DNA of 41,969 bases from Enterobacteria phage O276. Made by a program: the position numbers and the translations under genes. Shown here one piece after another: positions 23,908-41,899 of the stretch. The notes under the pieces are model-generated. The model did no database searches. It worked only from the letters and a program-made list of their open reading frames with translations, and was not told the DNA's origin. Numbering within the stretch: position 1 is the first letter of the stretch; every line of letters begins with the position of its first letter. The DNA lies in sequence record NC_049951.1; one strand, written 5' to 3'.

Positions 23908-24202
23908 CGCAAAGTCTCCGCAATTACACGCAAGAAAAAACCGCCATCAGGCGGCTTGGTGTTCTTTCAGTTCTTCAATTCGAATATTGGTTACGTCTGC
24001 ATGTGCTATCTGCGCCCATATCATCCAGTGGTCGTAGCAGTCGTTGATGTTCTCCGCTTCGATAACTCTGTTGAATGGCTCTCCATTCCATTCTCCTGTG
24101 ACTCGGAAGTGCATTTATCATCTCCATAAAACAAAACCCGCCGTAGCGAGTTCAGATAAAATAAATCCCCGCGAGTGCGAGGATTGTTATGTAATATTGG
24201 GT

Positions 24203-24484
24203 TTAATCATCTATATGTTTTGTACAGAGAGGGCAAGTATCGTTTCCACCGTACTCGTGATAATAATTTTGCACGGTATCAGTCATTTCTCGCACATTGC
24301 AGAATGGGGATTTGTCTTCATTAGACTTATAAACCTTCATGGAATATTTGTATGCCGACTCTATATCTATACCTTCATCTACATAAACACCTTCGTGATG
24401 TCTGCATGGAGACAAGACACCGGATCTGCACAACATTGATAACGCCCAATCTTTTTGCTCAGACTCTAACTCATTGATACTCAT
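24203..24484 (-). CDS. ea8.5: Ea8.5 protein
   Basis: 93-aa ORF at lambda ea8.5 position. Confidence 0.85.
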   Translation of the reverse strand: MSINELESEQKDWALSMLCRSGVLSPCRHHEGVYVDEGIDIESAYKYSMKVYKSNEDKSPFCNVREMTDTVQNYYHEYGGNDTCPLCTKHIDD

Positions 24485-24675
24485 TTATAAACTCCTTGCA
24501 ATGTATGTCGTTTCAGCTAAACGGTATCAGCAATGTTTATGTAAAGAAACAGTAAGATAATACTCAACCCGATGTTTGAGTACGGTCATCATCTGACACT
24601 ACAGACTCTGGCATCGCTGTGAAGACGACGCGAAATTCAGCATTTTCACAAGCGTTATCTTTTACAAAACCGATC

Positions 24676-25224
24676 TCACTCTCCTTTGATGCGAATGCCA
24701 GCGTCAGACATCATATGCAGATACTCACCTGCATCCTGAACCCATTGACCTCCAACCCCGTAATAGCGATGCGTAATGATGTCGATAGTTACTAACGGGT
24801 CTTGTTCGATTAACTGCCGCAGAAACTCTTCCAGGTCACCAGTGCAGTGCTTGATAACAGGAGTCTTCCCAGGATGGCGAACAACAAGAAACTGGTTTCC
24901 GTCTTCACGGACTTCGTTGCTTTCCAGTTTAGCAATACGCTTACTCCCATCCGAGATAACACCTTCGTAATACTCACGCTGCTCGTTGAGTTTTGATTTT
25001 GCTGTTTCAAGCTCAACACGCAGTTTCCCTACTGTTAGCGCAATATCCTCGTTCTCCTGGTCGCGGCGTTTGATGTATTGCTGGTTTCTTTCCCGTTCAT
25101 CCAGCAGTTCCAGCACAATCGATGGTGTTACCAATTCATGGAAAAGGTCTGCGTCAAATCCCCAGTCGTCATGCATTGCCTGCTCTGCCGCTTCACGCAG
25201 TGCCTGAGAGTTAATTTCGCTCAC
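24676..25224 (-). CDS. ea22: Ea22 protein
   Basis: 182-aa coiled-coil-rich ORF at lambda ea22 position. Confidence 0.85.
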   Translation of the reverse strand: MSEINSQALREAAEQAMHDDWGFDADLFHELVTPSIVLELLDERERNQQYIKRRDQENEDIALTVGKLRVELETAKSKLNEQREYYEGVISDGSKRIAKLESNEVREDGNQFLVVRHPGKTPVIKHCTGDLEEFLRQLIEQDPLVTIDIITHRYYGVGGQWVQDAGEYLHMMSDAGIRIKGE

Positions 25225-25442
25225 TTCGAACCTCTCTGTTTACTGATAAGTTCCAGATCCTCCTGGCAACTTGCACAAGTCCGACAACCCTGAACGACCA
25301 GGCGTCTTCGTTCATCTATCGGATCGCCACACTCACAACAATGAGTGGCAGATATAGCCTGGTGGTTCAGGCGGCGCATTTTTATTGCTGTGTTGCGCTG
25401 TAATTCTTCTATTTCTGATGCTGAATCAATGATGTCTGCCAT
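25221..25442 (-). CDS. small C4 zinc-finger protein, TraR/DksA-like
   Basis: 73 aa with CxxC-x17-CxxC (CECG...CRTC); ATGA overlap with ea22 start suggests coupling. Confidence 0.5.
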   Translation of the reverse strand: MADIIDSASEIEELQRNTAIKMRRLNHQAISATHCCECGDPIDERRRLVVQGCRTCASCQEDLELISKQRGSK

Positions 25443-25667
25443 CTTTCATTAATCCCTGAACTGTTGGTTAATACGCTTGAGGGTGAATGCGAATAATAAA
25501 AAAGGAGCCTGTAGCTCCCTGATGATTTTGCTTTTCATGTTCATCGTTCCTTAAAGACGCCGTTTAACATGCCGATTGCCAGGCTTAAATGAGTCGGTGT
25601 GAATCCCATCAGCGTTACCGTTTCGCGGTGCTTCTTCAGTACGCTACGGCAAATGTCATCGACGTTT

Positions 25668-25853
25668 TTATCCGGAAACTGCTGTCTGGCTTTTTTTGAT
25701 TTCAGAATTAGCCTGACGGGCAATGCTGCGAAGGGCGTTTTCCTGCTGAGGTGTCATTGAACAAGTCCCATGTCGGCAAGCATAAGCACACAGAATATGA
25801 AGCCCGCTGCCAGAAAAATGCATTCCGTGGTTGTCATACCTGGTTTCTCTCAT
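25668..25853 (-). CDS. orf61: hypothetical protein orf61
   Basis: 61-aa ORF at lambda orf61 position. Confidence 0.7.
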   Translation of the reverse strand: MRETRYDNHGMHFSGSGLHILCAYACRHGTCSMTPQQENALRSIARQANSEIKKSQTAVSG

Positions 25854-26025
25854 CTGCTTCTGCTTTCGCCACCATCATTTCCAGCTTTTGTGAAAGGGAT
25901 GCGGCTAACGTATGAAATTCTTCGTCTGTTTCTACTGGTATTGGCACAAACCTGATTCCAATTTGAGCAAGGCTATGTGCCATCTCGATACTCGTTCTTA
26001 ACTCAACAGAAGATGCTTTGTGCAT
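25834..26025 (-). CDS. orf63: hypothetical protein orf63
   Basis: 63-aa ORF at lambda orf63 position. Confidence 0.7.
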   Translation of the reverse strand: MHKASSVELRTSIEMAHSLAQIGIRFVPIPVETDEEFHTLAASLSQKLEMMVAKAEADERNQV

Positions 26026-26180
26026 ACAGCCCCTCGTTTATTATTTATCTCCTCAGCCAGCCGCTGTGCTTTCAGTGGATTTCGGATAACAGAAAGGCCG
26101 GGAAATACCCAGCCTCGCTTTGTAACGGAGTAGACGAAAGTGATTGCGCCTACCCGGATATTATCGTGAGGATGCGTCAT
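25998..26180 (-). CDS. orf60a: hypothetical protein orf60a
   Basis: ORF ending 25998; lambda orf60a position. Confidence 0.65.
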
Positions 26181-26857
26181 CGCCATTGCTCCCCAAATAC
26201 AAAACCAATTTCAGCCAGTGCCTCGTCCATTTTTTCGATGAACTCCGGCACGATCTCGTCAAAACTCGCCATGTACTTTTCATCCCGCTCAATCACGACA
26301 TAATGCAGGCCTTCACGCTTCATACGCGGGTCATAGTTGGCAAAGTACCAGGCATTTTTTCGCGTCACCCACATGCTGTACTGCACCTGGGCCATGTAAG
26401 CTGACTTTATGGCCTCGAAACCACCGAGCCGGAACTTCATGAAATCCCGGGAGGTAAACGGGCATTTCAGTTCAAGGCCGTTGCCGTCACTGCATAAACC
26501 ATCGGGAGAGCAGGCGGTACGCATACTTTCGTCGCGATAGATGATCGGGGATTCAGTAACATTCACGCCGGAAGTGAATTCAAACAGGGTTCTGGCGTCG
26601 TTCTCGTACTGTTTTCCCCAGGCCAGTGCTTTAGCGTTAACTTCCGGAGCCACACCGGTGCAAACCTCAGCAAGCAGGGTGTGGAAGTAGGACATTTTCA
26701 TGTCAGGCCACTTCTTTCCGGAGCGGGGTTTTGCTATCACGTTGTGAACTTCTGAAGCGGTGATGACGCCGAGCCGTAATTTGTGCCACGCATCATCCCC
26801 CTGTTCGACAGCTCTCACATCGATCCCGGTACGCTGCAGGATAATGTCCGGTGTCAT
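26177..26857 (-). CDS. exo: exonuclease (Red alpha)
   Basis: 226 aa [31 protein letters not shown]... Confidence 0.97.
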
Positions 26858-27639
26858 GCTGCCACCTTCTGCTCTGCGGCTTTCTGTTTCAGGAATCCAA
26901 GAGCTTTTACTGCTTCGGCCTGTGTCAGTTCTGACGATGCACGAATGTCGCGGCGAAATATCTGGGAACAGAGCGGCAATAAGTCGTCATCCCATGTTTT
27001 ATCCAGGGCGATCAGCAGAGTGTTAATCTCCTGCATGGTTTCATCGTTAACCGGAGTGATGTCGCGTTCCGGCTGACGTTCTGCAGTGTATGCAGTATTT
27101 TCGACAATGCGCTCGGCTTCATCCTTGTCATAGATACCAGCAAATCCGAAGGCCAGACGGGCACACTGAATCATGGCTTTATGACGTAACATCCGTTTGG
27201 GATGCGACTGCCACGGCCCCGTGATTTCTCTGCCTTCGCGAGTTTTGAATGGTTCGCGGCGGCATTCATCCATCCATTCGGTAACGCAGATCGGATGATT
27301 ACGGTCCTTGCGGTAAATCCGGCATGTACAGGATTCATTGTCCTGCTCAAAGTCCATGCCATCAAACTGCTGGTTTTCATTGATGATGCGGGACCAGCCA
27401 TCAACGCCCACCACCGGAACGATGCCGTTCTGCTTATCAGGAAAGGCGTAAATTTCTTTCGTCCACGGATTAAGGCCGTACTGGTTGGCGACGATCAGCA
27501 ATGCGATGAACTGCGCATCGCTGGCATCACCTTTAAATGCCGTCTGGCGAAGAGTGGTGATCAGTTCCTGTGGGTCGACAGAATCCATGCCGACACGTTC
27601 AGCCAGCTTCCCAGCCAGCGTTGCGAGTGCTGTACTCAT
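26854..27639 (-). CDS. bet: Bet single-strand annealing protein (Red beta)
   Basis: 261 aa [36 protein letters not shown]... Confidence 0.97.
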
Positions 27640-27644
27640 CCGTT

Positions 27645-28061
27645 TTATACCTCTGAATCAATATCAACCTGATGGTGAGCAATGGTTTCAACCATGTACC
27701 GGATGTGTTCTGCCATGCGCTCCTGAAACTCAACATCGTCATCAAATGCACGGGTAATGGCTTTTTTGCTGGCCCCGCAGCGTTGTAAATGATCGATGCA
27801 GAGCGATTCAAACAAATGCTGGGGCAGGCCTTTTTCCATGTCGTCTGCCAGTTCTGCCTCTTTCTCTTCACGGGCGAGCTGCTGGTAGTGACGCGCCCAG
27901 CTCTGAGCCTCAAGACGATCCTGAATGTAATAAGCGTTCATGGCTGAACTCCTGAAATAGCTGTGAAAATATCGCCCGCGAAATGCCAGGCTGATTAGGA
28001 AAACAGGAAAGGGGGTTAGTGAATGCTTTTGCTTGATCTCAGTTTCAGCATTAATATCCAT
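27645..28061 (-). CDS. gam: Gam, RecBCD inhibitor
   Basis: 138 aa [32 protein letters not shown]... Confidence 0.95.
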
Positions 28062-28159
28062 TTTTTATAAGCGTCGACGGCTTCACGAAACATCTTTTCA
28101 TCGCCAATAAAAGTGGCGATAGTGAATTTAGTCTGGATAGCCATACGTGTTTGATCCAT
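28016..28159 (-). CDS. kil: Kil, host cell division inhibitor
   Basis: 47-aa [47 protein letters not shown] inside the longer track ORF. Confidence 0.85.
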
Positions 28160-28292
28160 TCTTTGGGACTCCTGGCTGATTAAGTATGTCGATAAGGCGT
28201 TTCCATCCGTCACGTAATTTACGGGTGATTCGTTCAAGTAAAGATTCGGAAGGGCAGCCAGCAACAGGCCACCCTGCAATGGCATATTGCAT
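28128..28292 (-). CDS. cIII: CIII, FtsH protease inhibitor
   Basis: 54-aa MQYAIAGWPVAGCPSESLLERITRKLRDGWKRLIDILNQPGVPK... Confidence 0.9.
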   Translation of the reverse strand: MQYAIAGWPVAGCPSESLLERITRKLRDGWKRLIDILNQPGVPKNGSNTYGYPD

Positions 28293-28364
28293 GGTGTGCT
28301 CCTTATTTATACATAACGAAAAACGCCTCGAGTGAAGCGTTATTGGTATGCGGTAAAACCGCAC

Positions 28365-28733
28365 TCAGGCGGCCTTGATAGTCATATCATCTGAATCAAA
28401 TATTCCTGATGTATCGATATCGGTAATTCTTATTCCTTCACTACCATCCATTGGAGGCCATCCTTCCTGACCATTTCCATCATCCCAGTCGAACTCACAA
28501 ACAACACCATATGCATTTAAGTCTTTCGAAATTGCTATAAGCAGAGCATGTTGCGCCAGCATGATTAATACAGCATTTAATAAAGAGCCGTGTTTATTGA
28601 GTCGGTATTCAGAGTCTGACCAGAAATTATTAATCTGGTGAAGTTTTTCCTCTGTCATTACGTCATGGTCGATTTCAATTTCTATTGATGCTTTCCAGTC
28701 GTAATCAATGATGTATTTTTTGATGTTTGACAT
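28365..28733 (-). CDS. ea10: Ea10 protein
   Basis: 122-aa ORF at lambda ea10 position. Confidence 0.85.
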   Translation of the reverse strand: MSNIKKYIIDYDWKASIEIEIDHDVMTEEKLHQINNFWSDSEYRLNKHGSLLNAVLIMLAQHALLIAISKDLNAYGVVCEFDWDDGNGQEGWPPMDGSEGIRITDIDTSGIFDSDDMTIKAA

Positions 28734-28854
28734 CTGTTCATATCCTCACAGATAAAAAATCGCCCTCACACTGGAGGGCAAAGAAGATTTCCAATAATCA
28801 GAACAAGTCGACTCCTGTTTAGTTACGAGCGACATTGCTCCGTGTATTCACTCG

Positions 28855-28863
28855 TTGGAATGA
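28855..28863 (+). repeat. 9-bp target-site duplication TTGGAATGA (left copy)
   Basis: Identical 9-mer immediately outside each IS inverted repeat. Confidence 0.9.
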
Positions 28864-29920
28864 GGCTTTGTTGAATAAATCAGATTTCGGGTAAGTCTCC
28901 CCCGTAGCGGGTTGTGTTTTCAGGCAATACGCACGCTTTCAGGCATACCTGCTTTCGTCATTTTGTTCAGCGCTCGTACCAGGGCCATAGCCTCTGCAAC
29001 CTGACCATCGTAGTCACGCAGTGTCAGTGAACCCCCGAACAGCTGTTTTACCCGGTACATCGCCGTTTCCGCTATCGAGCGACGGTTGTAATCTGTTGTC
29101 CATTTCCACCGCGCATTACTCCCGGTCATTCGCTGATTAGCCACTGCACGGTTACGGTCTGCATATTCACCGGGCCAGTAACCCGCACCTTTTCGGGGAG
29201 GGATAAGCGCGCTGATTTTCTTACGCCGCAGTTCATCGTGACATAGCCGGGTATCGTAAGCGCCATCGGCGGCGGCTGACCTGATTTTCCGGTGGGTTTG
29301 CCGGATTAACCCGGGGAAGGCCTCTGAGTCCGTAACGTTGTTCAGCGACAGGTCAGCGCAGATGATTTCATGTGTTTTACTGTCAACGGCGAGATGCAGC
29401 TTACGCCAGATACGGCGGCGTTCCTGGCCATGCTTTTTGACTTTCCACTCGCCTTCACCGAAGACCTTCAGCCCGGTGGAATCAATTACCAGGTGTGCGA
29501 TTTCACCCCGGGTGGGCGTTTTGAAACTGACATTAACCGACTTTGCCCGCCTGCTGACACAGCTGTAATCCGGGCAGCGTAGCGGAACGTTCATCAGAGA
29601 AAAAATGGAATCAATAAAGCCCTGCGCAGCGCGCAGGGTCAGCCTGAATACGCGTTTAATGACCAGCACAGTCGTGATGGCAAGGTCAGAATAGCGCTGA
29701 GGTCTGCCTCGTGAAGAAGGTGTTGCTGACTCATACCAGGCCTGAATAGCTTCATCATCCAGCCAGAAAGTTATGGAGCCACGGTTGATGAGGGCTTTAT
29801 TGTAGGTGGGCCAGTTGGTGATTTTGAACTTTTGCTTTGCCACGGAACGGTCTGCGTTGTCGGGAAGATACGTGATCTGATCCTTCAACTCAGCAAAAGT
29901 TCGATTTATTCAACAAAGCC
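28864..29920 (-). mobile_element. IS903: IS903-family insertion sequence (IS5 family), 1057 bp
   Basis: Perfect 18-bp terminal inverted repeats GGCTTTGTTGAATAAATC at 28864..28881 and 29903..29920; one transposase ORF; 9-bp TSD. Confidence 0.93.
28920..29843 (-). CDS. tnp: IS903 transposase (DDE, IS5 family), 307 aa from GTG start
   Basis: ...VAKQKFKITNWPTYNKALINRGSITFWLDDEAIQAWY...; track ORF runs 15 codons further upstream to 29888. Confidence 0.9.
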   Translation of the reverse strand: MAKQKFKITNWPTYNKALINRGSITFWLDDEAIQAWYESATPSSRGRPQRYSDLAITTVLVIKRVFRLTLRAAQGFIDSIFSLMNVPLRCPDYSCVSRRAKSVNVSFKTPTRGEIAHLVIDSTGLKVFGEGEWKVKKHGQERRRIWRKLHLAVDSKTHEIICADLSLNNVTDSEAFPGLIRQTHRKIRSAAADGAYDTRLCHDELRRKKISALIPPRKGAGYWPGEYADRNRAVANQRMTGSNARWKWTTDYNRRSIAETAMYRVKQLFGGSLTLRDYDGQVAEAMALVRALNKMTKAGMPESVRIA

Positions 29921-29929
29921 TTGGAATGA
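29921..29929 (+). repeat. 9-bp target-site duplication TTGGAATGA (right copy)
   Basis: Direct repeat of 28855..28863. Confidence 0.9.
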
Positions 29930-29957
29930 ATACACAGTGCAGTGTTTATTCTGTTGT

Positions 29958-29989
29958 TTGCGTGAAAATGAAACCCGCCTGAGCGGGTT
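29958..29989 (-). terminator. intrinsic terminator at the 3' end of nun
   Basis: AACCCGC-tcag-GCGGGTT hairpin followed by a T-rich run on the minus strand; overlaps the nun stop. Confidence 0.55.
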
Positions 29990-30326
29990 ATGACCACTTT
30001 TTGTTTGGGTTTCGCTGGTGAGCGTGATTAACAACTCTGTGCATTACATCCTCATATTTTTCATCTTCAATTTTTTCGACATCGCGAGGAAATGGTGTTG
30101 CTAATGCTTTGTCAACTTTGTCCATTGGGTCTTCATTAATCTTATATTCAGGACCGTCATCTATAGCATTAAATCCAGGTGTCACACCGTTTTTTAATGC
30201 ATATGCTATCCTTTTTTCCCATCTCGCTATTCTCCTCCTGTCTCGAGATGTAAGACCTCTATCAGATACTTTTCTGTTTTGTCCGCTGTCAGGATTAACA
30301 TAAATAGTCTTTTTCACCATAAGCAT
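29988..30326 (-). CDS. nun: Nun transcription-termination factor (HK022-type, arginine-rich motif); alternative ATG at 30320
   Basis: ARM DRGLTSRDRRRIARWEKRIAYALKNG and C-terminal ...NPNKKWS with penultimate Trp. Confidence 0.8.
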   Translation of the reverse strand: MLMVKKTIYVNPDSGQNRKVSDRGLTSRDRRRIARWEKRIAYALKNGVTPGFNAIDDGPEYKINEDPMDKVDKALATPFPRDVEKIEDEKYEDVMHRVVNHAHQRNPNKKWS

Positions 30327-30584
30327 ACCCAATAAGCACCGTACGGTAGTTTACTGTACAATTTTATTTTTTGGACTGCATGTATTTTGTTTCCTAATGG
30401 GTTTGAATCTTTGCAATAAATACTTCTATTTTTTCGAACGACTTCTATATCAAAAAGCTGCTTTGCTTTTTGTGACTAAAAGCAAAAAAGCCTTCTCGCT
30501 AATGAGCAGCATTGCCGTTCATCCTGAACCCGCCGCGCTCCCGACGCATGGTTTAAAGACGCGCCGTTCGTCTATGGGCTTATG

Positions 30585-30684
30585 ATGTACTTAAAGTTCA
30601 TTAATGTAAAGTACCAATAGTACATTTTATGGGTATAAAAAGCTCACTACATCATAAGTTAGTGAACTTTAAGGAAATTTATTT
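30585..30684 (-). promoter_or_regulatory. left operator/promoter region (OL/pL-type) for the heterologous repressor
   Basis: Repeated TTAAAGTTCA / TGAACTTTAA half-site palindromes just beyond the cI stop, upstream of the leftward operon. Confidence 0.5.
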
Positions 30685-31392
30685 TTATCCGAATCGCTTG
30701 TAATCGATTGACTGCCTAATGAGGACTTTGGCTAGAATGTGAAGTTGCTCTTCTTCACCTTCTTCTATGTACCATCGATCATAAGCGGCATTGTCAGAGA
30801 TGACGGCAAGCCTGTTCTTTTGCATTTGCAGGCGCTTAACGTGCATTGTTTTCCCGTATACAAACACATAAATGCCATCGCCATCAAAACAGGTTATGGA
30901 TACAACAACAAAGATCTCATCTCCCGGATTGATGGTTCCCTCCATGCTGTCACCGCGAACCGTGATGACTTTTACGCTTTCCTGTGGCCTTCCATTAAAT
31001 AAAATTCTTGCCTGCTCGGTCGTATATTCAATTGCTCTTATCTTTTCTATAAATTCATTGGAAACCATGGTTCCTGGCCCGGCGCTCGCCTGAACATCCA
31101 ATACATCAACACGATAATAATCATTTGATCTTGATAGATGATTTACCGTGATACCGTCATCATCAGCATAGCCATGCAGATATGCAGCAGTAGTTCCCAG
31201 CACCGAAGCCAGAGATTCCATCTTGTCTTTTCTTGGTATTGACTCCCCGTTGAACCATTTACTAATGGCTTTTGGTGTGACCTTAAGCCTGACAGCTAAA
31301 TCAGCCTGCCTACCATGCAAAGGTAATCCCGCTTTATCACAGGCCAGCGCAAGCCTCTGCGAGAAAGTTTCACGCTCTTTCTGTTGAACCAT
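30685..31392 (-). CDS. cI: CI-type repressor (HTH + LexA-like S24 peptidase domain), non-lambda allele
   Basis: HTH ...GRQADLAVRLKVTPKAISKWFNGE...; C-terminal GDSM...K; start chosen at M56 of the track ORF because upstream residues overlap PR and cro. Confidence 0.8.
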   Translation of the reverse strand: MVQQKERETFSQRLALACDKAGLPLHGRQADLAVRLKVTPKAISKWFNGESIPRKDKMESLASVLGTTAAYLHGYADDDGITVNHLSRSNDYYRVDVLDVQASAGPGTMVSNEFIEKIRAIEYTTEQARILFNGRPQESVKVITVRGDSMEGTINPGDEIFVVVSITCFDGDGIYVFVYGKTMHVKRLQMQKNRLAVISDNAAYDRWYIEEGEEEQLHILAKVLIRQSIDYKRFG

Positions 31393-31457
31393 AAGTTCAA
31401 CTATATTAGGTATTGACTGTACTATCAGTTCCGTCATAATATGAACCATAAGTTCAC
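31385..31457 (+). promoter_or_regulatory. OR-type operator/promoter region: two copies of the 15-bp palindrome TGAACCATAAGTTCA flanking PR (-35 TTGACT, -10 TAATAT); divergent PRM-like -10 TAATAT
   Basis: Palindromes at 31385..31399 and 31443..31457; TTGACT 31413..31418, TAATAT 31437..31442; reverse-strand TAATAT at 31403..31408. Confidence 0.7.
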
Positions 31458-31471
31458 CACAGGAGAGAAGC

Positions 31472-31702
31472 ATGAACGAAGTTACGTTTGGAGAAGTTAT
31501 CAAATCCGTTCGAGTTTCTGTTGTGGCTGATGTTTGTGGACTTACGCCAAAAGCCATCTATAAGTGGCTTGAGCGTGGTTCTCTGCCGCGTACCGAGTTC
31601 ACTGGTGAAACCGAATATGCGGATAAGATCGCCAAGGCATCAGGCGGCAAGTACTCAGCAGCACAGATTCGCCGTATCGGTAAACAGCAGTTTGTTATGT
31701 AA
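31472..31702 (+). CDS. cro: Cro-type repressor, non-lambda allele
   Basis: 76-aa HTH protein just downstream of PR; AGGAGA SD. Confidence 0.8.
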   Translation: MNEVTFGEVIKSVRVSVVADVCGLTPKAIYKWLERGSLPRTEFTGETEYADKIAKASGGKYSAAQIRRIGKQQFVM

Positions 31703-31823
31703 TAAAAATGTACTTTTAGTACCGAACGGCCCGGTATACGGTCGGGTGCCCGGCGTGGTCAAGGATGACTGTCAATGGTGCACGATAAAAACCCAAATTA
31801 TTTACCTATGGAGATAGTAAGAA

Positions 31824-32120
31824 ATGACACAAACAAGTTACAGCAAGCCAACACAGCGAGAAATTGATCGCGCTGAAACTGATTTACTCATCAACCTGTC
31901 AACGCTTACCCAGCGCGGTCTGGCAAAGATGATTGGCTGTCATGAATCGAAGATAAGCAGAACGGACTGGAGATTTATTGCTTCGGTCTTGTGTGCTTTC
32001 GGAATGGCATCAGACATCAGTCCGATTAGCAGGGCTTTTAAGTATGCGCTTGATGAAATCACAAAGAAAAAATCCCCGGCCGCCACCGAGGATTTTAAGC
32101 AAATTGATATGCAATTCTGA
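31824..32120 (+). CDS. cII: CII-type transcriptional activator, non-lambda allele
   Basis: 98 aa; C-terminal ...KKSPAATEDFKQIDMQF resembles lambda CII ...KKRPAATERSEQIQMEF. Confidence 0.8.
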   Translation: MTQTSYSKPTQREIDRAETDLLINLSTLTQRGLAKMIGCHESKISRTDWRFIASVLCAFGMASDISPISRAFKYALDEITKKKSPAATEDFKQIDMQF

Positions 32121-32152
32121 GGGAATTACTGGATCTATCAACAGGAGTCATT

Positions 32153-33052
32153 ATGACAAATACAGCAAAAATACTCAACTTCGGCAGAGGTAACTTTGCC
32201 GGACAGGAGCGTAATGTGGCAGATCTCGATGATGGTTACGCCAGACTATCAAATATGCTGCTTGAGGCTTATTCGGGCGCAGATCTGACCAAGCGACAGT
32301 TTAAAGTGCTGCTTGCCATTCTGCGTAAAACCTATGGGTGGAATAAACCAATGGACAGAATCACCGATTCTCAACTTAGCGAGATTACAAAGTTACCTGT
32401 CAAACGGTGCAATGAAGCCAAGTTAGAACTCGTCAGAATGAATATTATCAAGCAGCAAGGCGGCATGTTTGGACCAAATAAAAACATCTCAGAATGGTGT
32501 ATCCCTCAAAACGAGGGAAAATCCCCTAAAACGAGGGATAAAACATCCCTCAAATTGGGGGATTGCTATCCCTCAAAACAGGGGGACACAAAAGACACTA
32601 TTACAAAAGAAAAAAGAAAAGATTATTCGTCCGAGAATTCTGGCGAATCCTCTGACCAGCCAGAAAACGATCTTTCTGTGGTTAAACCGGATGCTGCAAT
32701 TCAGAGCGGCAGCAAGTGGGGAACAGCAGAAGACCTGACCGCCGCAGAGTGGATGTTTGACATGGTGAAGACCATCGCGCCATCAGCCAGAAAACCGAAT
32801 TTTGCTGGGTGGGCTAACGATATCCGCCTGATGCGTGAACGTGACGGACGTAACCACCGCGATATGTGTGTGCTTTTCCGCTGGGCCTGCCAGGACAACT
32901 TCTGGTCCGGTAACGTGCTGAGTCCGGCCAAACTCCGCGACAAGTGGACCCAGCTCGAAATCAACCGTAACAAGCAACAGGCAGGCGTGACAGCCAGCAA
33001 ACCAAAACTCGACCTGACAAACACTGACTGGATTTACGGGGTGGATTTATGA
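32153..33052 (+). CDS. O: replication initiator O
   Basis: 299 aa MTNTAKILNFGRGNFAGQERNVADLDDGYARLSNMLLEAYSGADLTKRQFK... Confidence 0.97.
   Translation: MTNTAKILNFGRGNFAGQERNVADLDDGYARLSNMLLEAYSGADLTKRQFKVLLAILRKTYGWNKPMDRITDSQLSEITKLPVKRCNEAKLELVRMNIIKQQGGMFGPNKNISEWCIPQNEGKSPKTRDKTSLKLGDCYPSKQGDTKDTITKEKRKDYSSENSGESSDQPENDLSVVKPDAAIQSGSKWGTAEDLTAAEWMFDMVKTIAPSARKPNFAGWANDIRLMRERDGRNHRDMCVLFRWACQDNFWSGNVLSPAKLRDKWTQLEINRNKQQAGVTASKPKLDLTNTDWIYGVDL
32500..32630 (+). repeat. ori: ori lambda: four about 19-bp iterons (ATCCCTCAAAACGAGGGA type) plus AT-rich region, inside O
   Basis: Four tandem imperfect palindromic repeats then an A-rich stretch. Confidence 0.92.
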
Positions 33053-33750
33053 AAAACATCGCCGCACAGATGGTTAACTTTGACCGTGAGCAGATGCGTC
33101 GGATCGCCAACAACATGCCGGAACAGTACGACGAAAAGCCGCAGGTACAACAGGTAGCGCAGATCATCAATGGTGTGTTCAGCCAGTTACTGGCAACTTT
33201 CCCGGCGAGTCTGGCTAACCGGGACCAGAACGAACTGAACGAAATCCGCCGCCAGTGGGTGCTGGCTTTCCGGGAAAACGGGATCACCACAATGGAACAG
33301 GTTAACGCAGGAATGCGCGTAGCCCGTCGGCAGAATCGACCATTTCTGCCATCACCCGGGCAGTTTGTTGCATGGTGCCGGGAAGAAGCATCCGTTATCG
33401 CCGGACTGCCAAACGTCAGCGAGCTGGTTGATATGGTTTACGAGTATTGCCGGAAGCGAGGCCTGTATCCGGATGCGGAGTCTTATCCGTGGAAATCAAA
33501 CGCGCACTACTGGCTGGTTACCAACCTGTATCAGAACATGCGGGCCAATGCGCTTACTGATGCGGAATTACGCCGTAAGGCCGCAGATGAGCTTGTCCAT
33601 ATGACTGCGAGAATTAACCGTGGTGAGGCGATCCCTGAACCAGTAAAACAACTTCCTGTCATGGGCGGTAGACCTCTAAATCGTGCACAGGCTCTGGCGA
33701 AGATCGCAGAAATCAAAGCTAAGTTCGGACTGAAAGGAGCAAGTGTATGA
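33049..33750 (+). CDS. P: replication protein P (DnaB helicase loader)
   Basis: 233 aa MKNIAAQMVNFDREQMRRIANNMPEQYDEKPQVQQ... Confidence 0.97.
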   Translation: MKNIAAQMVNFDREQMRRIANNMPEQYDEKPQVQQVAQIINGVFSQLLATFPASLANRDQNELNEIRRQWVLAFRENGITTMEQVNAGMRVARRQNRPFLPSPGQFVAWCREEASVIAGLPNVSELVDMVYEYCRKRGLYPDAESYPWKSNAHYWLVTNLYQNMRANALTDAELRRKAADELVHMTARINRGEAIPEPVKQLPVMGGRPLNRAQALAKIAEIKAKFGLKGASV

Positions 33751-34037
33751 CGGGCAAAGAGGCAATTATTCATTACCTGGGGACGCATAATAGCTTCTGT
33801 GCGCCGGACGTTGCCGCGCTAACAGGCGCAACAGTAACCAGCATAAATCAGGCCGCGGCTAAAATGGCACGGGCAGGTCTTCTGGTTATCGAAGGTAAGG
33901 TCTGGCGAACGGTGTATTACCGGTTTGCTACCAGGGAAGAACGGGAAGGAAAGATGAGCACGAACCTGATTTTTAAGGAGTGTCGCCAGAGTGCCGCGAT
34001 GAAACGGGTATTGGCGGTATATGGAGTTAAAAGATGA
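33747..34037 (+). CDS. ren: Ren protein
   Basis: 96-aa ORF, ATGA overlap with P. Confidence 0.9.
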   Translation: MTGKEAIIHYLGTHNSFCAPDVAALTGATVTSINQAAAKMARAGLLVIEGKVWRTVYYRFATREEREGKMSTNLIFKECRQSAAMKRVLAVYGVKR

Positions 34038-34110
34038 CCATCTACATCACTGAGCTAATAACAGGCCTGCTGGTAATCGCAGGCCTTTTTATTTGGGGGA
34101 GAGGGAAGTC

Positions 34111-34551
34111 ATGAAAAAACTAACCTTTGAAATTCGATCTCCAGCACATCAGCAAAACGCTATTCACGCGGTACAGCAAATTCTTCCAGACCCAACCAAA
34201 CCAATCGTAGTAACCATTCAGGAACGCAACCGCAGCTTAGACCAGAATCGAAAGCTTTGGGCTTGCCTTGGTGACGTCTCTCGTCAGGTTGAATGGCATG
34301 GTCGCTGGCTGGATGCAGAAAGCTGGAAGTGTGTGTTTACCGCAGCATTAAAGCAGCAGGATGTTGTTCCTAACCTTGCCGGGAATGGCTTTGTGGTAAT
34401 AGGCCAGTCAACCAGCAGGATGCGTGTAGGCGAATTTGCGGAGCTATTAGAGCTTATACAGGCATTCGGTACAGAGCGTGGCGTTAAGTGGTCAGACGAA
34501 GCGAGACTGGCTCTGGAGTGGAAAGCGAGATGGGGAGACAGGGCTGCATGA
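34111..34551 (+). CDS. ninB: NinB (Orf) recombination mediator
   Basis: MKKLTFEIRSPAHQQNAIHAVQQILPDPTKP... Confidence 0.9.
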   Translation: MKKLTFEIRSPAHQQNAIHAVQQILPDPTKPIVVTIQERNRSLDQNRKLWACLGDVSRQVEWHGRWLDAESWKCVFTAALKQQDVVPNLAGNGFVVIGQSTSRMRVGEFAELLELIQAFGTERGVKWSDEARLALEWKARWGDRAA

Positions 34552-35420
34552 TAAATGTCGTTAGTTTCTCCGGTGGCAGGACGTCAGCATATTTGCTCTG
34601 GCTAATGGAGCAAAAGCGACGGGCAGGTAAAGACGTGCATTACGTTTTCATGGATACAGGTTGTGAACATCCAATGACATATCGGTTTGTCAGGGAAGTT
34701 GTGAAGTTCTGGGATATACCGCTCACCGTATTGCAGGTTGATATCAACCCGGAGCTTGGACAGCCAAATGGTTATACGGTATGGGAACCAAAGGATATTC
34801 AGACGCGAATGCCTGTTCTGAAGCCATTTATCGATATGGTAAAGAAATATGGCACTCCATACGTCGGCGGCGCGTTCTGCACTGACAGATTAAAACTCGT
34901 TCCCTTCACCAAATACTGTGATGACCATTTCGGGCGAGGGAATTACACCACGTGGATTGGCATCAGAGCTGATGAACCGAAGCGGCTAAAGCCAAAGCCT
35001 GGAATCAGATATCTTGCTGAACTGTCAGACTTTGAGAAGGAAGATATCCTCGCATGGTGGAAGCAACAACCATTCGATTTGCAAATACCGGAACATCTCG
35101 GTAACTGCATATTCTGCATTAAAAAATCAACGCAAAAAATCGGACTTGCCTGCAAAGATGAGGAGGGATTGCAGCGTGTTTTTAATGAGGTCATCACGGG
35201 ATCCCATGTGCGTGACGGACATCGGGAAACGCCAAAGGAGATTATGTACCGAGGAAGAATGTCGCTGGACGGTATCGCGAAAATGTATTCAGAAAATGAT
35301 TATCAAGCCCTGTATCAGGACATGGTACGAGCTAAAAGATTCGATACCGGCTCTTGTTCTGAGTCATGCGAAATATTTGGAGGGCAGCTTGATTTCGACT
35401 TCGGGAGGGAAGCTGCATGA
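34548..35420 (+). CDS. ninC: NinC
   Basis: [42 protein letters not shown]... (PAPS-reductase-like SGG motif). Confidence 0.9.
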
Positions 35421-35590
35421 TGCGATGTTATCGGTGCGGTGAATGCAAAGAAGATAACCGCTTCCGACCAAATCAACCTTACTGGAATCGATGGTGTCTC
35501 CGGTGTGAAAGAACACCAACAGGGGTGTTACCACTACCGCAGGAAAAGGAGGACGTGTGGCGAGACAGCGACGAAGTATCACCGACATAA
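35417..35590 (+). CDS. ninD: NinD (small Cys-rich protein)
   Basis: 57-codon [22 protein letters not shown]... translated by hand; below the track length cutoff. Confidence 0.75.
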
Positions 35591-35739
35591 TCTGCGAAAA
35601 CTGCAAATACCTTCCAACGAAACGCACCAGAAATAAACCCAAGCCAATCCCAAAAGAATCTGACGTAAAAACCTTCAACTACACGGCTCACCTGTGGGAT
35701 ATCCGGTGGCTAAGACGTCGTGCGAGGAAAACAAGGTGA
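35557..35739 (+). CDS. ninE: NinE
   Basis: 60-aa ORF at lambda ninE position. Confidence 0.8.
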
Positions 35740-35906
35740 TTGACCAAAATCGAAGTTACGAACAAGAAAGCGTCGAGCGAGCTTTAACGTGCGCTAACTG
35801 CGGTCAGAAGCTGCATGTGCTGGAAGTTCACGTGTGTGAGCACTGCTGCGCAGAACTGATGAGCGATCCGAATAGCTCGATGCACGAGGAAGAAGATGAT
35901 GGCTAA
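35736..35906 (+). CDS. ninF: NinF (GTG start)
   Basis: [56 protein letters not shown]. Confidence 0.8.
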
Positions 35907-36510
35907 ACCAGCGCGAAGACGATGTAAAAACGATGAATGCCGGGAATGGTTTCACCCTGCATTCGCTAATCAGTGGTGGTGCTCTCCAGAGTGTGGAACC
36001 AAGATAGCACTCGAACGACGAAGTAAAGAACGCGAAAAAGCGGAAAAAGCAGCAGAGAAGAAACGACGACGAGAGGAGCAGAAACAGAAAGATAAACTTA
36101 AGATTCGAAAACTCGCCTTAAAGCCCCGCAGTTACTGGATTAAACAAGCCCAACAAGCCGTAAACGCCTTCATCAGAGAAAGAGACCGCGACTTACCATG
36201 TATCTCGTGCGGAACGCTCACGTCTGCTCAGTGGGATGCCGGACATTACCGGACAACTGCTGCGGCACCTCAACTCCGATTTAATGAACGCAATATTCAC
36301 AAGCAATGCGTGGTGTGCAACCAGCACAAAAGCGGAAATCTCGTTCCGTATCGCGTCGAACTGATTAGCCGCATCGGGCAGGAAGCAGTAGACGAAATCG
36401 AATCAAACCATAACCGCCATCGCTGGACTATCGAAGAGTGCAAGGCGATCAAGGCAGAGTACCAACAGAAACTCAAAGACCTGCGAAATAGCAGAAGTGA
36501 GGCCGCATGA
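35896..36510 (+). CDS. ninG: NinG (Rap) Holliday-junction resolvase-like
   Basis: 204-aa ORF with Cys clusters. Confidence 0.9.
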
Positions 36511-36713
36511 CGTTCTCAGTAAAAACCATTCCAGACATGCTCGTTGAAGCATACGGAAATCAGACAGAAGTAGCACGCAGACTGAAATGTAGTCGCGGTA
36601 CGGTCAGAAAATACGTTGATGATAAAGACGGGAAAATGCACGCCATCGTCAACGACGTTCTCATGGTTCATCGCGGATGGAGTGAAAGAGATGCGCTATT
36701 ACGAAAAAATTGA
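36507..36713 (+). CDS. ninH: NinH
   Basis: 68-aa ORF at lambda ninH position. Confidence 0.85.
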
Positions 36714-37356
36714 TGGCAGCAAATACCGAAATATTTGGGTAGTTGGCGATCTGCACGGATGCTACACGAACCTGATGAACAAACTGGATACGATTGGATT
36801 CGACAACAAAAAAGACCTGCTTATCTCGGTGGGCGATTTGGTTGATCGTGGTGCAGAGAACGTTGAATGCCTGGAATTAATCACATTCCCCTGGTTCAGA
36901 GCTGTACGTGGAAACCATGAGCAAATGATGATTGATGGCTTATCAGAGCGTGGAAACGTTAATCACTGGCTGCTTAATGGCGGTGGCTGGTTCTTTAATC
37001 TCGATTACGACAAAGAAATTCTGGCTAAAGCTCTTGCCCATAAAGCAGATGAACTTCCGTTAATCATCGAACTGGTGAGCAAAGATAAAAAATATGTTAT
37101 CTGCCACGCCGATTATCCCTTTGACGAATACGAGTTTGGAAAGCCAGTTGATCATCAGCAGGTAATCTGGAACCGCGAACGAATCAGCAACTCACAAAAC
37201 GGGATCGTGAAAGAAATCAAAGGCGCGGACACGTTCATCTTTGGTCATACGCCAGCAGTGAAACCACTCAAGTTTGCCAACCAAATGTATATCGATACCG
37301 GCGCAGTGTTCTGCGGAAACCTAACATTGATTCAGGTACAGGGAGAAGGCGCATGA
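36691..37356 (+). CDS. ninI: NinI Ser/Thr protein phosphatase
   Basis: [25 protein letters not shown]... calcineurin-like GDLHG / GDLVDRG / GNHE motifs. Confidence 0.92.
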
Positions 37357-37976
37357 GACTCGAAAGCGTAGCTAAATTTCATTCGCCAAAAAGCCCGATG
37401 ATGAGCGACTCACCACGGGCCACGGCTTCTGACTCTCTTTCCGGTACTGATGTGATGGCTGCTATGGGGATGGCGCAATCACAAGCCGGATTCGGTATGG
37501 CTGCATTCTGCGGTAAGCACGAACTCAGCCAGAACGACAAACAAAAGGCTATCAACTATCTGATGCAATTTGCACACAAGGTATCGGGGAAATACCGTGG
37601 TGTGGCAAAGCTTGAAGGAAATACTAAGGCAAAGGTACTGCAAGTGCTCGCAACATTCGCTTATGCGGATTATTGCCGTAGTGCCGCGACGCCGGGGGCA
37701 AGATGCAGAGATTGCCATGGTACAGGCCGTGCGGTTGATATTGCCAAAACAGAGCTGTGGGGGAGAGTTGTCGAGAAAGAGTGCGGAAGATGCAAAGGCG
37801 TCGGCTATTCAAGGATGCCAGCAAGCGCAGCATATCGCGCTGTGACGATGCTAATCCCAAACCTTACCCAACCCACCTGGTCACGCACTGTTAAGCCGCT
37901 GTATGACGCTCTGGTGGTGCAATGCCACAAAGAAGAGTCAATCGCAGACAACATTTTGAATGCGGTCACACGTTAG
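37353..37976 (+). CDS. Q: late antiterminator Q
   Basis: 207-aa ORF with Zn-binding CRDCHGTG...CGRCKG. Confidence 0.95.
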
Positions 37977-38008
37977 CAGCATGATTGCCACGGATGGCAA
38001 CATATTAA

Positions 38009-38037
38009 CGGCATGATATTGACTTATTGAATAAAAT
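38009..38037 (+). promoter_or_regulatory. late promoter pR' (-35 TTGACT, -10 TAAATT) with qut region
   Basis: TTGACT at 38009..38014, 17-bp spacer, TAAATT at 38032..38037, directly after Q. Confidence 0.85.
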
Positions 38038-38188
38038 TGGGTAAATTTGACTCAACGATGGGTTAATTCGCTCGTTGTGGTAGTGAGATGAAAAGAGGCG
38101 GCGCTTACTACCGATTCCGCCTAGTTGGTCACTTCGACGTATCGTCTGGAACTCCAACCATCGCAGGCAGAGAGGTCTGCAAAATGCA

Positions 38189-38248
38189 ATCCCGAAACAG
38201 TTCGCAGGTAATAGTTAGAGCCTGCATAACGGTTTCGGGATTTTTTAT
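38189..38248 (+). terminator. tR' terminator ending the short pR' (6S) transcript
   Basis: Long inverted repeat AATCCCGAAAC...GTTTCGGGATT followed by TTTTTT. Confidence 0.85.
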
Positions 38249-38652
38249 ATCTGCACAACAGGTAAGAGCATTGAGTCGATAATCGTGAAGAGTCGGCGAG
38301 CCTGGTTAGCCAGTGCTCTTTCCGTTGTGCTGAATTAAGCGAATACCGGAAGCAGAACCGGATCACCAAATGCGTACAGGCGTCATCGCCGCCCAGCAAC
38401 AGCACAACCCAAACTGAGCCGTAGCCACTGTCTGTCCTGAATTCATTAGTAATAGTTACGCTGCGGCCTTTTACACATGACCTTCGTGAAAGCGGGTGGC
38501 AGGAGGTCGCGCTAACAACCTCCTGCCGTTTTGCCCGTGCATATCGGTCACGAACAAATCTGATTACTAAACACAGTAGCCTGGATTTGTTCTATCAGTA
38601 ATCGACCTTATTCCTAATTAAATAGAGCAAATCCCCTTATTGGGGGTAAGAC

Positions 38653-38976
38653 ATGAAGATGCCAGAAAAACATGACCTGTTGGCCGCCATTCTCGCGGCA
38701 AAGGAACAAGGCATCGGGGCAATCCTTGCGTTTGCAATGGCGTACCTTCGCGGCAGATATAATGGCGGTGCGTTTACAAAAACAGTAATCGACGCAACGA
38801 TGTGCGCCATTATCGCCTGGTTCATTCGTGACCTTCTCGACTTCGCCGGACTAAGTAGCAATCTCGCTTATATAACGAGCGTGTTTATCGGCTACATCGG
38901 TACTGACTCGATTGGTTCGCTTATCAAACGCTTCGCTGCTAAAAAAGCCGGAGTAGAAGATGGTAGAAATCAATAA
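38653..38976 (+). CDS. S: holin/antiholin S (S107 from 38653; S105 from Met3 at 38659)
   Basis: [34 protein letters not shown]... dual-start Met-Lys-Met. Confidence 0.97.
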
Positions 38977-39436
38977 TCAACGTAAGGCGTTCCTCGATAT
39001 GCTGGCGTGGTCGGAGGGAACTGATAACGGACGTCAGAAAACCAGAAATCATGGTTATGACGTCATTGTAGGCGGAGAGCTATTCACTGATTACTCCGAT
39101 CACCCTCGCAAACTTGTCACGCTAAACCCAAAACTCAAATCAACAGGCGCCGGACGCTACCAGCTTCTTTCCCGTTGGTGGGATGCCTACCGCAAGCAGC
39201 TTGGCCTGAAAGACTTCTCTCCGAAAAGTCAGGACGCTGTGGCATTGCAGCAGATTAAGGAGCGTGGCGCTTTACCTATGATTGATCGTGGTGATATCCG
39301 TCAGGCAATCGACCGTTGCAGCAATATCTGGGCTTCACTGCCGGGCGCTGGTTATGGTCAGTTCGAGCATAAGGCTGACAGCCTGATTGCAAAATTCAAA
39401 GAAGCGGGCGGAACGGTCAGAGAGATTGATGTATGA
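38960..39436 (+). CDS. R: endolysin R (lytic transglycosylase)
   Basis: [39 protein letters not shown]... Confidence 0.97.
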
Positions 39437-39894
39437 GCAGAGTCACCGCGATTATCTCCGCTCTGGTTATCTGCATCATCGTCTGCCTGTCATGGGCTGT
39501 TAATCATTACCGTGATAACGCCATTACCTACAAAGCCCAGCGCGACAAAAATGCCAGAGAACTGAAGCTGGCGAACGCGGCAATTACTGACATGCAGATG
39601 CGTCAGCGTGATGTTGCTGCGCTCGATGCAAAATACACGAAGGAGTTAGCTGATGCTAAAGCTGAAAATGATGCTCTGCGTGATGATGTTGCCGCTGGTC
39701 GTCGTCGGTTGCACATCAAAGCAGTCTGTCAGTCAGTGCGTGAAGCCACCACCGCCTCCGGCGTGGATAATGCAGCCTCCCCCCGACTGGCAGACACCGC
39801 TGAACGGGATTATTTCACCCTCAGAGAGAGGCTGATCACTATGCAAAAACAACTGGAAGGAACCCAGAAGTATATTAATGAGCAGTGCAGATAG
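39433..39894 (+). CDS. Rz: spanin inner-membrane subunit Rz
   Basis: 153 aa, N-terminal TM segment then coiled coil. Confidence 0.95.
39653..39835 (+). CDS. Rz1: spanin outer-membrane lipoprotein Rz1, embedded in the +1 frame of Rz
   Basis: 60 aa with lipobox LVVVGC and proline-rich tail. Confidence 0.9.
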
Positions 39895-39925
39895 AGCTGA
39901 CCATATCGATGGGCAACTCATGCAA

Positions 39926-40219
39926 TTATTTTGAGCAATACACACGCGCTTCCAGCGGAGTATAAATGCCTAAAGTAATAAAACCGAGCAATCCATTTAC
40001 GAATGTTTGCTGGGTTTCTGTTTTAACAACATTTTCTGCGCCGCCACAAATTTTAGCTGCATCGACAGTTTTCTTCTGCCCAATTCCAGAAACGAAGAAA
40101 TGATGGGTGATGGTTTCCTTTGGTGCTACTGCTGCCGGTTTGTTTTGAACAGTAAACGTCTGTTGAGCACATCCTGTAATAAGCAGGGCCAGCGCAGTAG
40201 CGAGTAGCATTTTTTTCAT
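39926..40219 (-). CDS. bor: Bor lipoprotein (serum resistance)
   Basis: 97 aa MKKMLLATALALLITGCAQQ... lipobox. Confidence 0.95.
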   Translation of the reverse strand: MKKMLLATALALLITGCAQQTFTVQNKPAAVAPKETITHHFFVSGIGQKKTVDAAKICGGAENVVKTETQQTFVNGLLGFITLGIYTPLEARVYCSK

Positions 40220-40508
40220 GGTGTTATTCCCGATGCTTTTTGAAGTTCGCAGAATCGTATGTGTAGAAAATTAAACAAACCCTAAACAATGAGTTGAAAT
40301 TTCATATTGTTAATATTTATTAATGTATGTCAGGTGCGATGAATCGTCATTGTATTCCCGGATTAACTATGTCCACAGCCCTGACGGGGAACTTCTCTGC
40401 GGGAGTGTCCGGGAATAATTAAAACGATGCACACAGGGTTTAGCGCGTACACGTATTGCATTATGCCAACGCCCCGGTGCTGACACGGAAGAAACCGGAC
40501 GTTATGAT

Positions 40509-41770: not shown

Positions 41771-41899
41771 GAGGTTGCCCCGTATTCAGTGTCGCTGATT
41801 TGTATTGTCTGAAGTTGTTTTTACGTTAAGTTGATGCAGATCAATTAATACGATACCTGCGTCATAATTGATTATTTGACGTGGTTTGATGGCCTCCAC

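Follow-up and report, generated by a model that had tools for sequence, protein, structure and literature searches.

What has taken the place of the lambda immunity region in the phage O276, how far does the foreign DNA reach on each side, whose DNA surrounds it, and how can early antitermination proceed after such a replacement? These questions were addressed with the genome of 41,969 bp (GC 50.68%), which is the whole stretch of DNA that was analysed and is called the window below.

The HK022 block and its joints

A reading made from the sequence alone had assigned an HK022-type immunity region, nun-cI-cro-cII, to 29957-32152. Alignment confirms this, as the entire interval matches HK022 27694-29889, where Nun, CI, Cro and CII are annotated, with 99.8% identity. 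The block is wider, from 28812-28853 to 32125-32135. Specifically, 28752-32160 is gaplessly collinear with HK022 (AF069308) 26489-29897 and 99.7% identical to it; nine of the 10 mismatches fall in the two crossover zones and one in cI. We have very little doubt about the explanation as a whole, namely that a block of about 3.3 kb from HK022 sits in the immunity region of a lambda b515 b519 chromosome. Its order from left to right is IS903, nun, putL, PL/OL, cI, OR/PR, cro, OFR, putR and cII. The joints and the left end of the block contain the following features:

28812-28853, no strand: left crossover interval, phage 21-type to HK022-type, 42 bp, between ea10 and IS903
28855-28863 and 29921-29929: 9-bp target duplication of IS903, TTGGAATGA
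28864-29920, minus strand: IS903, 1057 bp, with 18-bp terminal inverted repeats GGCTTTGTTGAATAAATC
28920-29843, minus strand: IS903 transposase reading frame, 307/307 identical to HK022_46
29921-29959, no strand: 39-bp remnant right of IS903, common to lambda, phage 21 and HK022
32125-32135, no strand: right crossover interval, HK022-type to lambda/21-type, 11 bp, between the stop codon of cII and the start codon of O

The limits of the left interval are given by the last 21-specific base, 28811, and the first base that excludes phage 21, 28854, which is G here, in lambda and in HK022 and A in phage 21. On the right, HK022-specific bases extend to 32124 and lambda/21-specific ones begin at 32136. 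The block entered by two homologous crossovers, one within each interval.

The sequence-only reading had lambda-like sequence continue to about 29956 and put the left junction at about 29957. Homology between lambda and HK022 does end there, but what precedes this point is merely the 39-bp remnant past IS903, itself from HK022. Continuous lambda/21 homology ends at 28863 in blastn and resumes, in local alignment, over the 39 bp past IS903. The remnant matches lambda 34026-34064 and phage 21 33301-33339 at 38 of 39 positions and is followed by complete divergence. The partial similarity noted at this junction is exact, with TTCTGTTGTTTGCGTG here and TTCTGTTATTTATGCC in lambda 34026-34068. Since IS903 belongs to the imported HK022 DNA, the true recombination joint lies about 1.1 kb further left, at 28812-28853.

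The element has the length, the 18-bp repeats, the 9-bp duplication and the DDE transposase (Pfam DDE_Tnp_1_5 and DDE_Tnp_1) of IS903, a member of the IS5 family. Its site and target duplication are the same as in HK022, and the transposase is identical to the annotated IS903 transposase of that phage. In HK75, in contrast, the target site is without IS903, and HK75 bases 1465-1473 align to both flanks of the element. The possibility that IS903 had inserted independently, at a site of lambda type, was considered and ruled out: element, site and duplication are identical to those of HK022 and the alignment runs through them without a gap.

Phage 21 alleles on both sides of the block

The gene O adjoins the block on the right as had been proposed, but the alleles there are those of phage 21 and not of lambda. 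Two tracts are of this kind:

27427-28811, no strand: left flank with phage 21 alleles, comprising the 3' end of bet, gam, kil, cIII and ea10; neither HK022 nor reference lambda
32136-34269, no strand: right flank with phage 21 alleles, comprising O, P, ren and the 5' part of ninB

At sites informative for lambda versus phage 21, all 66 in 25231-27337 are lambda-type and all 25 in 27338-28853 are 21-type; on the right 37/37 are 21-type, followed by 30/30 lambda-type from 34301. Left of the block, 27300-28863 has 99.9% identity to phage 21 (OL657228) versus 98.4% to lambda. It is very likely that O276 is a three-parent mosaic of lambda, phage 21 and HK022, with about 3.5 kb around the block being phage 21 DNA. 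The published description of O276 assigns the remaining genes to lambda (PMC6256539), and lambda stocks in laboratories do show a few differences from the reference, so that the flanking differences might be read as ordinary laboratory-strain variation, or as more HK022 DNA, in an otherwise lambda genome. We consider this very improbable. At each of the 62 flanking positions that differ from lambda (62/62 informative sites in both flanks together) the allele is that of phage 21, and these positions lie in two unbroken tracts directly adjoining the HK022 block. Over the 2,265 bp of 32136-34400, the one on the right is 100.0% identical to phage 21 (OL657228). Homologs of lambda bet, gam, ea10, O or P are absent from HK022 at these positions, and therefore the tracts cannot be HK022 DNA.

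With the three-parent mosaic preferred, we deduce from the 21-type flanks a lambda parent that was itself a lambda/21 hybrid of the imm21 type, and the displaced segment was probably imm21 rather than imm-lambda. Such a parent is plausible, as phage 21 N and its nut sites should not be targets of Nun during mixed infection with HK022. The sequenced lambda imm21 (OM418625) is ruled out as the direct parent: it is lambda-type across 27300-28863, where O276 is 21-type.

Phage 21 ancestry is absent from the O276 paper and conflicts with its statement that all remaining genes are lambda genes (PMC6256539). The genome of phage 21 appeared in 2022, later than the O276 paper of 2018. The phage 21 flanks are a small correction of provenance. 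Those who use O276 as lambda outside the immunity region should note that, relative to reference lambda, a few residues are different in Gam, Kil and Ea10 and 62 sites in the flank DNA.

Identity with the published hybrid

The published O276 (MH547045; King & Perez 2018, PMC6256539) has 41,969 bp, a GC content of 50.7%, the deletions b519 (3,177 bp) and b515 (1,995 bp) and a G insertion at 14,267. It carries cIts12, although the base change of ts12 is absent from that paper. Its crossovers are described as lying between cIII and IS903 and between cII and O, with nun, cI, cro, cII and IS903 as the only HK022 genes and all other genes from lambda (PMC6256539). The genome in the window runs from cos to cos on lambda 1-48502. 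Relative to lambda it has deletions of 3,177 bp (the size of b519) and 1,995 bp (the size of b515) and an extra G at position 14,267, and the first 19.8 kb contain 2 mismatches and one 1-bp insertion. All descriptors are reproduced: length, GC, both deletions, the extra G, the single cI change and the crossover positions. There is no detectable difference from the description, in which the phage 21 tracts are unmentioned (PMC6256539). Based on this match to every numerical descriptor in PMC6256539, the genome is almost certainly that of the published laboratory hybrid. The HK022 immunity region in a lambda hybrid is thus a correct observation of something already known, and it yields no new biology.

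Lambdoid phages are naturally mosaic, and segments like nun and the HK022 cII occur in many natural phages, mEp235, mEpX1, HK75 and Stx phages among them, which would allow for a natural lambdoid phage or prophage in which an HK022-like immunity module is joined to the structural genes of lambda. We regard the chance of this as minute, and such an origin is effectively refuted by the near identity of the first 19.8 kb to lambda, by b-region deletions of exactly the published b519 and b515 sizes, by the extra G, the one change in cI and a length exactly as published, and by a block that, IS903 included, is identical to HK022 except for one base in cI.

Repressor circuit, Nun and put RNAs

The laboratory hybrid carries the following features between the 39-bp remnant and O:

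29972-29989, minus strand: intrinsic-terminator-like hairpin at the end of nun, with a T run; the 3' arm and the stop codon of nun overlap (leftward transcript)
29988-30320, minus strand: nun (Nun transcription-arrest factor), 110 aa when started at MVKKT; the open frame reaches an upstream ATG at 30326
30504-30566, minus strand: putL, cis-acting antiterminator RNA from PL; identical to the annotated putL of HK75 and without mismatch to HK022
30582-30610, minus strand: PL promoter, by annotation transfer from X16093/HK75; TTTACA-17-CATCAT in the scan
30586-30600, 30610-30624 and 30632-30646, minus strand: OL1, OL2 and OL3, by annotation transfer from X16093 and HK75
30685-31392, minus strand: cI repressor (HK022), 235 aa, with a helix-turn-helix and an S24 peptidase domain
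31385-31399, 31418-31432 and 31442-31456, plus strand: OR3, OR2 and OR1, by annotation transfer
31413-31440, plus strand: PR promoter, TTGACT-16-CATAAT, the best match in the promoter scan
31472-31702, plus strand: cro (HK022), 76 aa, 76/76 identical to HK022 Cro
31709-31723, plus strand: OFR, an extra predicted repressor-binding site downstream of cro; TGTACTTTTAGTACC fits the operator pattern, with annotation transfer from HK75
31723-31784, plus strand: putR, cis-acting antiterminator RNA from PR; 61/62 to the annotated putR of HK75 and identical to HK022
31814-31842, antisense: PRE promoter, CII-dependent, by annotation transfer
31824-32120, plus strand: cII (HK022), 98 aa, 98/98 identical to HK022 CII

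The LexA-like repressor and the Cro noted earlier are indeed heterologous to lambda. CI (Pfam matches HTH_3 and Peptidase_S24) is identical to HK022 CI at 234 of 235 residues, and Cro is identical throughout. The one substitution, D163V (GAT to GTT, base 30905), is the sole internal difference in the block. We interpret it as the cIts12 allele of the publication, in which case it would make lysogens heat-inducible. Compared with CI and Cro of lambda and phage 21, the two proteins have 18-20% identity in global alignment and give no tblastn match; the repressor is not that of lambda or 21. Nun, CI, Cro and CII share 13-33% identity with lambda N, cI, cro and cII. CII shares 86/99 residues with phage 21 CII and 33/103 with lambda CII (Pfam Phage_CII, E=5e-33). 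Its C-terminus is lambda-like, as had been recognised: the DNA from 32059 can be aligned to lambda starting at 38592, and there are 18 mismatches up to 32124.

The 15-bp operator pattern TGAAC-N5-GTTCA has 20 matches genome-wide versus 3.8 expected. Six of them are clustered in the block, at 30586, 30610, 31385, 31418, 31442 and 31709, in agreement with the HK75 and X16093 annotations; the same scan found the exact palindrome TGAACCATAAGTTCA twice in the OR region. On the basis of published studies of HK022, carried over by sequence identity, HK022 CI would bind such operators at OL, OR and OFR. With HK022 CI acting at HK022 operators, the phage should therefore have HK022 immunity and be heteroimmune to lambda. 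The reported absence of lambda N, RexA/RexB, SieB and Ral holds as well: lambda Ral, Orf28, SieB, N, RexB, RexA, CI and Cro give no tblastn match in the genome at E<=1e-3, and neither do phage 21 N at that threshold or phage 21 Ral, CI and Cro in the same kind of search. The functions of Rex, SieB and Ral would be lost with these genes. The sequence thus supports heteroimmunity and the presence of Nun, and also that Rex, SieB, Ral and N have been lost.

The arginine-rich-motif protein with a C-terminal KKWS, described before as Nun-like, aligns to HK022 Nun without a single difference (110/110). Its arginine-rich motif is SRDRRRIARWEKRIAYAL. Residues 4-112 match PDB 6ALG chain N (E=4e-72), the sequence in that chain being identical, and the arginine-rich peptide matches PDB 1HJI (1HJI_B). 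The terminator-like hairpin at the end of the gene has, in the consensus scan, a 7-pair stem with 5 GC pairs and the tail TCATTTTCAC. From its identity to the HK022 protein, Nun is expected to bind boxB of lambda nut RNA by the arginine-rich motif and to arrest polymerase, and therefore an O276 lysogen should exclude lambda through Nun; the hybrid itself has no boxB target. HK022 with nun deleted plates normally, as published work has concluded.

No lambda boxB (nut) is present within 2 mismatches anywhere in the genome. Since N and the two nut sites are missing, it must be the putL and putR RNAs in the block that provide early antitermination. The purpose of O276 was to show HK022 early antitermination without N protein, by way of these cis-acting RNAs (PMC6256539). 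putL lies downstream of PL, and the placement of putR fits a position about 270 nt downstream of the PR start as in PMC9378689. The function and structure of put RNA have been described; the RNA folds on RNA polymerase into a structure that includes non-canonical pairs and a triplex (PMC9378689). Minimum-free-energy folds give two hairpins for each RNA and are no better than those of shuffled sequences (z = -0.63 for putL and -0.06 for putR). An Rfam scan of 27000-33500 at a permissive threshold returned only the lambda cIII thermoregulator at 28247-28305 and chance-level matches, Rfam having no put family. The put assignment is therefore a putative one, based on identity to the HK022 sequence on which the experiments were done.

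As in HK022, nascent putL and putR RNAs would bind the zinc-binding domain of beta-prime and make polymerase from PL and PR resistant to terminators. Readthrough of lambda/21 terminators (e.g. a tR2-type hairpin at 34063-34086) would carry transcription into the replication, nin and Q genes, and put-modified leftward transcription would reach the red genes. That Nun, which lies in the position of N and has an N-like arginine-rich motif, or another protein of the block replaces N as a protein antiterminator is exceedingly unlikely, as the genome holds no boxB/nut target for such a motif and the work on O276 concluded that a phage-encoded antitermination factor is not required and led to the put RNA discovery (PMC6256539, PMC9378689). 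[quoted passage not shown]

Compared with known systems, O276 has the same map position for its immunity module as lambda has for its N/nut and Rex/SieB module, between ea10 and O, and the same divergent PL and PR around the repressor gene. In contrast to lambda, N, nutL, nutR, rexA, rexB, sieB and ral of that module are all missing. Outside the block, the recombination genes (erf/abc) and the replication genes of HK022 are P22-like; the window has the lambda/21 red genes and O/P instead. The HK75 immunity region (HM173637) is 95.9% identical from nun to cII and has annotated putL, putR, OL1-3, OR1-3 and OFR. Lambda imm21 (OM418625) and lambda imm434 (OM418626) are, like O276, lambda chromosomes that acquired a heterologous immunity by homologous crossovers, and all of them carry extra donor DNA beyond the region of nonhomology. 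The difference lies in antitermination: imm21 keeps the protein N and nut of phage 21 and imm434 those of lambda, while O276 has RNA-only put together with Nun.

Immunity genes and the extent of the HK022 block

The sequence-only reading had placed HK022-type nun, cI, cro and cII genes between positions 29957 and 32152, and every element of that observation is correct; the two outcomes named there as refuting it did not occur. The ORFs listed over 27500-34500 include the following:

29988-30326, minus strand: nun frame, 112 aa, with the motif DRGLTSRDRRRIARWEKRIAYAL and the C-terminal KKWS
ends at 30685, minus strand: repressor-sized frame (cI)
31472-31702: 76-aa frame (cro)
31824-32120: 98-aa frame (cII)
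start at 32153: lambda O

In a megablast search of 50,697 phage records, 29957-32152 matched HK022 (AF069308, 27694-29889) with 100% coverage and 99.8% identity, and this match covers the HK022 genes annotated as Nun, CI, Cro and CII. The next match was HK75 (95.9%). Protein comparison with HK022 gave 110/110 identical residues for Nun, 76/76 for Cro, 98/98 for CII and 234/235 for CI; the single internal difference is at base 30905, where CI codon 163 reads GTT instead of GAT (D163V). When aligned globally with lambda N, cI, cro and cII, the four proteins reach 13-33% identity, and only CII is close to its phage 21 counterpart (86/99). Nun matches two solved structures (6ALG chain N and 1HJI chain B), CI has the Pfam domains HTH_3 and Peptidase_S24, and CII has Phage_CII. 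The reported loss of lambda N, RexA/RexB, SieB and Ral holds as well: tblastn over the whole window (E<=1e-3) found no match to lambda Ral, Orf28, SieB, N, RexB, RexA, CI or Cro, nor to phage 21 Ral, N, CI or Cro. The nun gene with about 120 bp upstream (29971-30446) matches segments of mEp235, mEpX1, a Lambdavirus record and many Stx1a phages at 92-97% identity. These segments are annotated beside an N-like antiterminator, thus nun-like genes and N co-occur in natural phages.

Block map (blastn, window versus the complete lambda and HK022 genomes)
1-19788: lambda 1-19787
19775-20747: lambda 22951-23923
20738-28863: lambda 25909-34034
28752-32160: HK022 26489-29897 (0 gaps, 10 mismatches)
32059-41969: lambda 38592-48502

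According to this map the HK022-shared block starts about 1.1 kb to the left of 29957. The additional DNA is IS903 (28864-29920, 1057 bp). Its terminal inverted repeats are 18 bp long, and a 9-bp target duplication, TTGGAATGA, flanks it (28855-28863 and 29921-29929). HK022 carries an annotated IS903 at this very position, whereas HK75 lacks it and HK75 bases 1465-1473 align to both IS903 flanks. To the right of IS903 there are 39 bp of lambda homology (29921-29959 = lambda 34026-34064, 38/39). At its end the window reads ...GTTGTTTGCGTG and lambda ...GTTATTTATGCC; local comparison confirmed these sequences as given in the sequence-only reading. The junction proposed there at 29956 correctly marks the end of lambda homology; the recombination joint lies elsewhere.

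Recombination joints and phage 21 flanks

Mismatches to lambda outside the HK022 block fall into two tracts adjoining it rather than being scattered. Over window 27300-28863 identity is 99.9% with phage 21 (OL657228) and 98.4% with lambda; over 32136-34400 it is 100.0% with phage 21. The flanks were typed with a three-way table of informative sites, which also delimits the crossover intervals:

25231-27337: 66/66 lambda-type
27338-28853: 25/25 phage 21-type
28812-28853: left joint, 21 to HK022; last 21-specific base 28811
32125-32135: right joint, HK022 to 21/lambda; after the cII stop at 32120 and before the O start at 32153
32136-34300: 37/37 phage 21-type
34301-36535: 30/30 lambda-type

Phage 21 alleles occupy 62/62 informative sites in 27427-28811 and 32136-34269, where identity to OL657228 is 99.9-100%. 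Position 28854 is G in the window, lambda and HK022 and A in phage 21. The cII genes of phage 21 and HK022 are near-identical over most of their length, so long homology was on hand for the right-hand exchange. The presence of phage 21 alleles in both flanks implies that the "lambda" parent would itself have been a lambda/21 hybrid. The segment displaced by the HK022 block was probably imm21; imm21 phages lack the lambda nut sites on which Nun acts, which makes this plausible.

Regulatory sites and antitermination

Sites were placed by annotation transfer from HK75 (HM173637) and the HK022 immunity region record X16093 via alignments. The pattern TGWAC-N5-GTWCA recovers six of the operators (marked p) and a consensus scan recovers PR and PL (marked c).

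30504-30566, minus strand: putL
30582-30610, minus strand: PL (c)
30586-30600: OL1 (p)
30610-30624: OL2 (p)
30632-30646: OL3
31385-31399: OR3 (p)
31413-31440, plus strand: PR (c)
31418-31432: OR2 (p)
31442-31456: OR1 (p)
31709-31723: OFR (p)
31723-31784, plus strand: putR
31814-31842, minus strand: PRE

The 1989 record X16093 has a "putative nutL equivalent" at window 30451-30484, which appears to be superseded by the later putL. An oop-like antisense RNA unit (32069-32178, minus strand) spans the right crossover. Its promoter-like TTGAGT-17-CATAAT (32178-32150) belongs to the 21/lambda part and its strong terminator hairpin (32096-32069) to the HK022 part, and the predicted oop RNA is therefore chimeric. 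Rfam Lambda_thermo, the cIII thermoregulator, is found at 28247-28305 on the minus strand (88.5 bits, E=3e-21), upstream of a phage 21-type cIII.

No lambda boxB occurs anywhere in the window with two mismatches allowed. With boxB and N missing, an intact nin region and a tR2-type terminator at 34063-34086, the phage needs antitermination to express its downstream lambda/21 genes. In published work it comes from nascent put RNAs, which attach to the zinc-binding domain of the RNA polymerase beta-prime subunit and need no phage-encoded protein (PMC6256539, PMC9378689). The put sequences are identical to those of HK022, and by this identity we assign put antitermination to the window phage. Folding of the put sequences added nothing to the assignment, and Rfam has no put model. 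Nun stalls polymerase on lambda nut RNA, as structures 6ALG and 1HJI support. The hybrid lacks nut, so its own Nun has no target there. A lysogen should exclude lambda and be immune only to HK022-immunity phages.

Comparison with the published hybrid O276

O276 (MH547045) was built by Oberto et al. (1993), obtained from R. A. Weisberg and described by King & Perez 2018 (PMC6256539) as lambda b515 b519 carrying the immunity region of HK022. The paper gives 41,969 bp, GC 50.7%, deletions of 1,995 (b515) and 3,177 (b519) bases, the HK022 cIts12 mutation, an additional G at 14,267 and crossovers at cIII/IS903 and cII/O; nun, cI, cro, cII and IS903 are the sole HK022 genes. The window reproduces all these features. 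It has 41,969 nt and GC 50.68%, its first difference from lambda is the G inserted at 14,267, and both deletions lie at short direct repeats. The side-tail-fibre and tfa region is lost in the 3,177-bp deletion (lambda about 19778-22950, junction window 19775-19788); the 1,995-bp deletion (lambda 23914-25908, junction window 20738-20747) lies at the 10-bp direct repeat GTCATAAAAC. We infer that D163V is ts12, because it is the sole candidate change.

The inserted G falls in the region of gene K, shortly before the annotated start of that gene (lambda 14276), and the K reading frame may be extended or altered by it. Six isolated single-base differences from lambda, at 39085, 39897, 39900, 39931 and 40055 (R/Rz/bor region) and at 20076 (ea47), are unclustered, carry the phage 21 base only at 39897 and are probably laboratory-stock variants.

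No record in the collection searched covered at least 80% of window 26000-36000, and the window is identified as published O276 by these descriptors rather than by alignment to MH547045. The phage is thus already known, with a well-studied HK022 immunity module. The O276 paper (PMC6256539) assigns every non-HK022 gene to lambda and does not mention phage 21 alleles, whereas the window has phage 21-type flanks; this one detail is a note on provenance, not a discovery.
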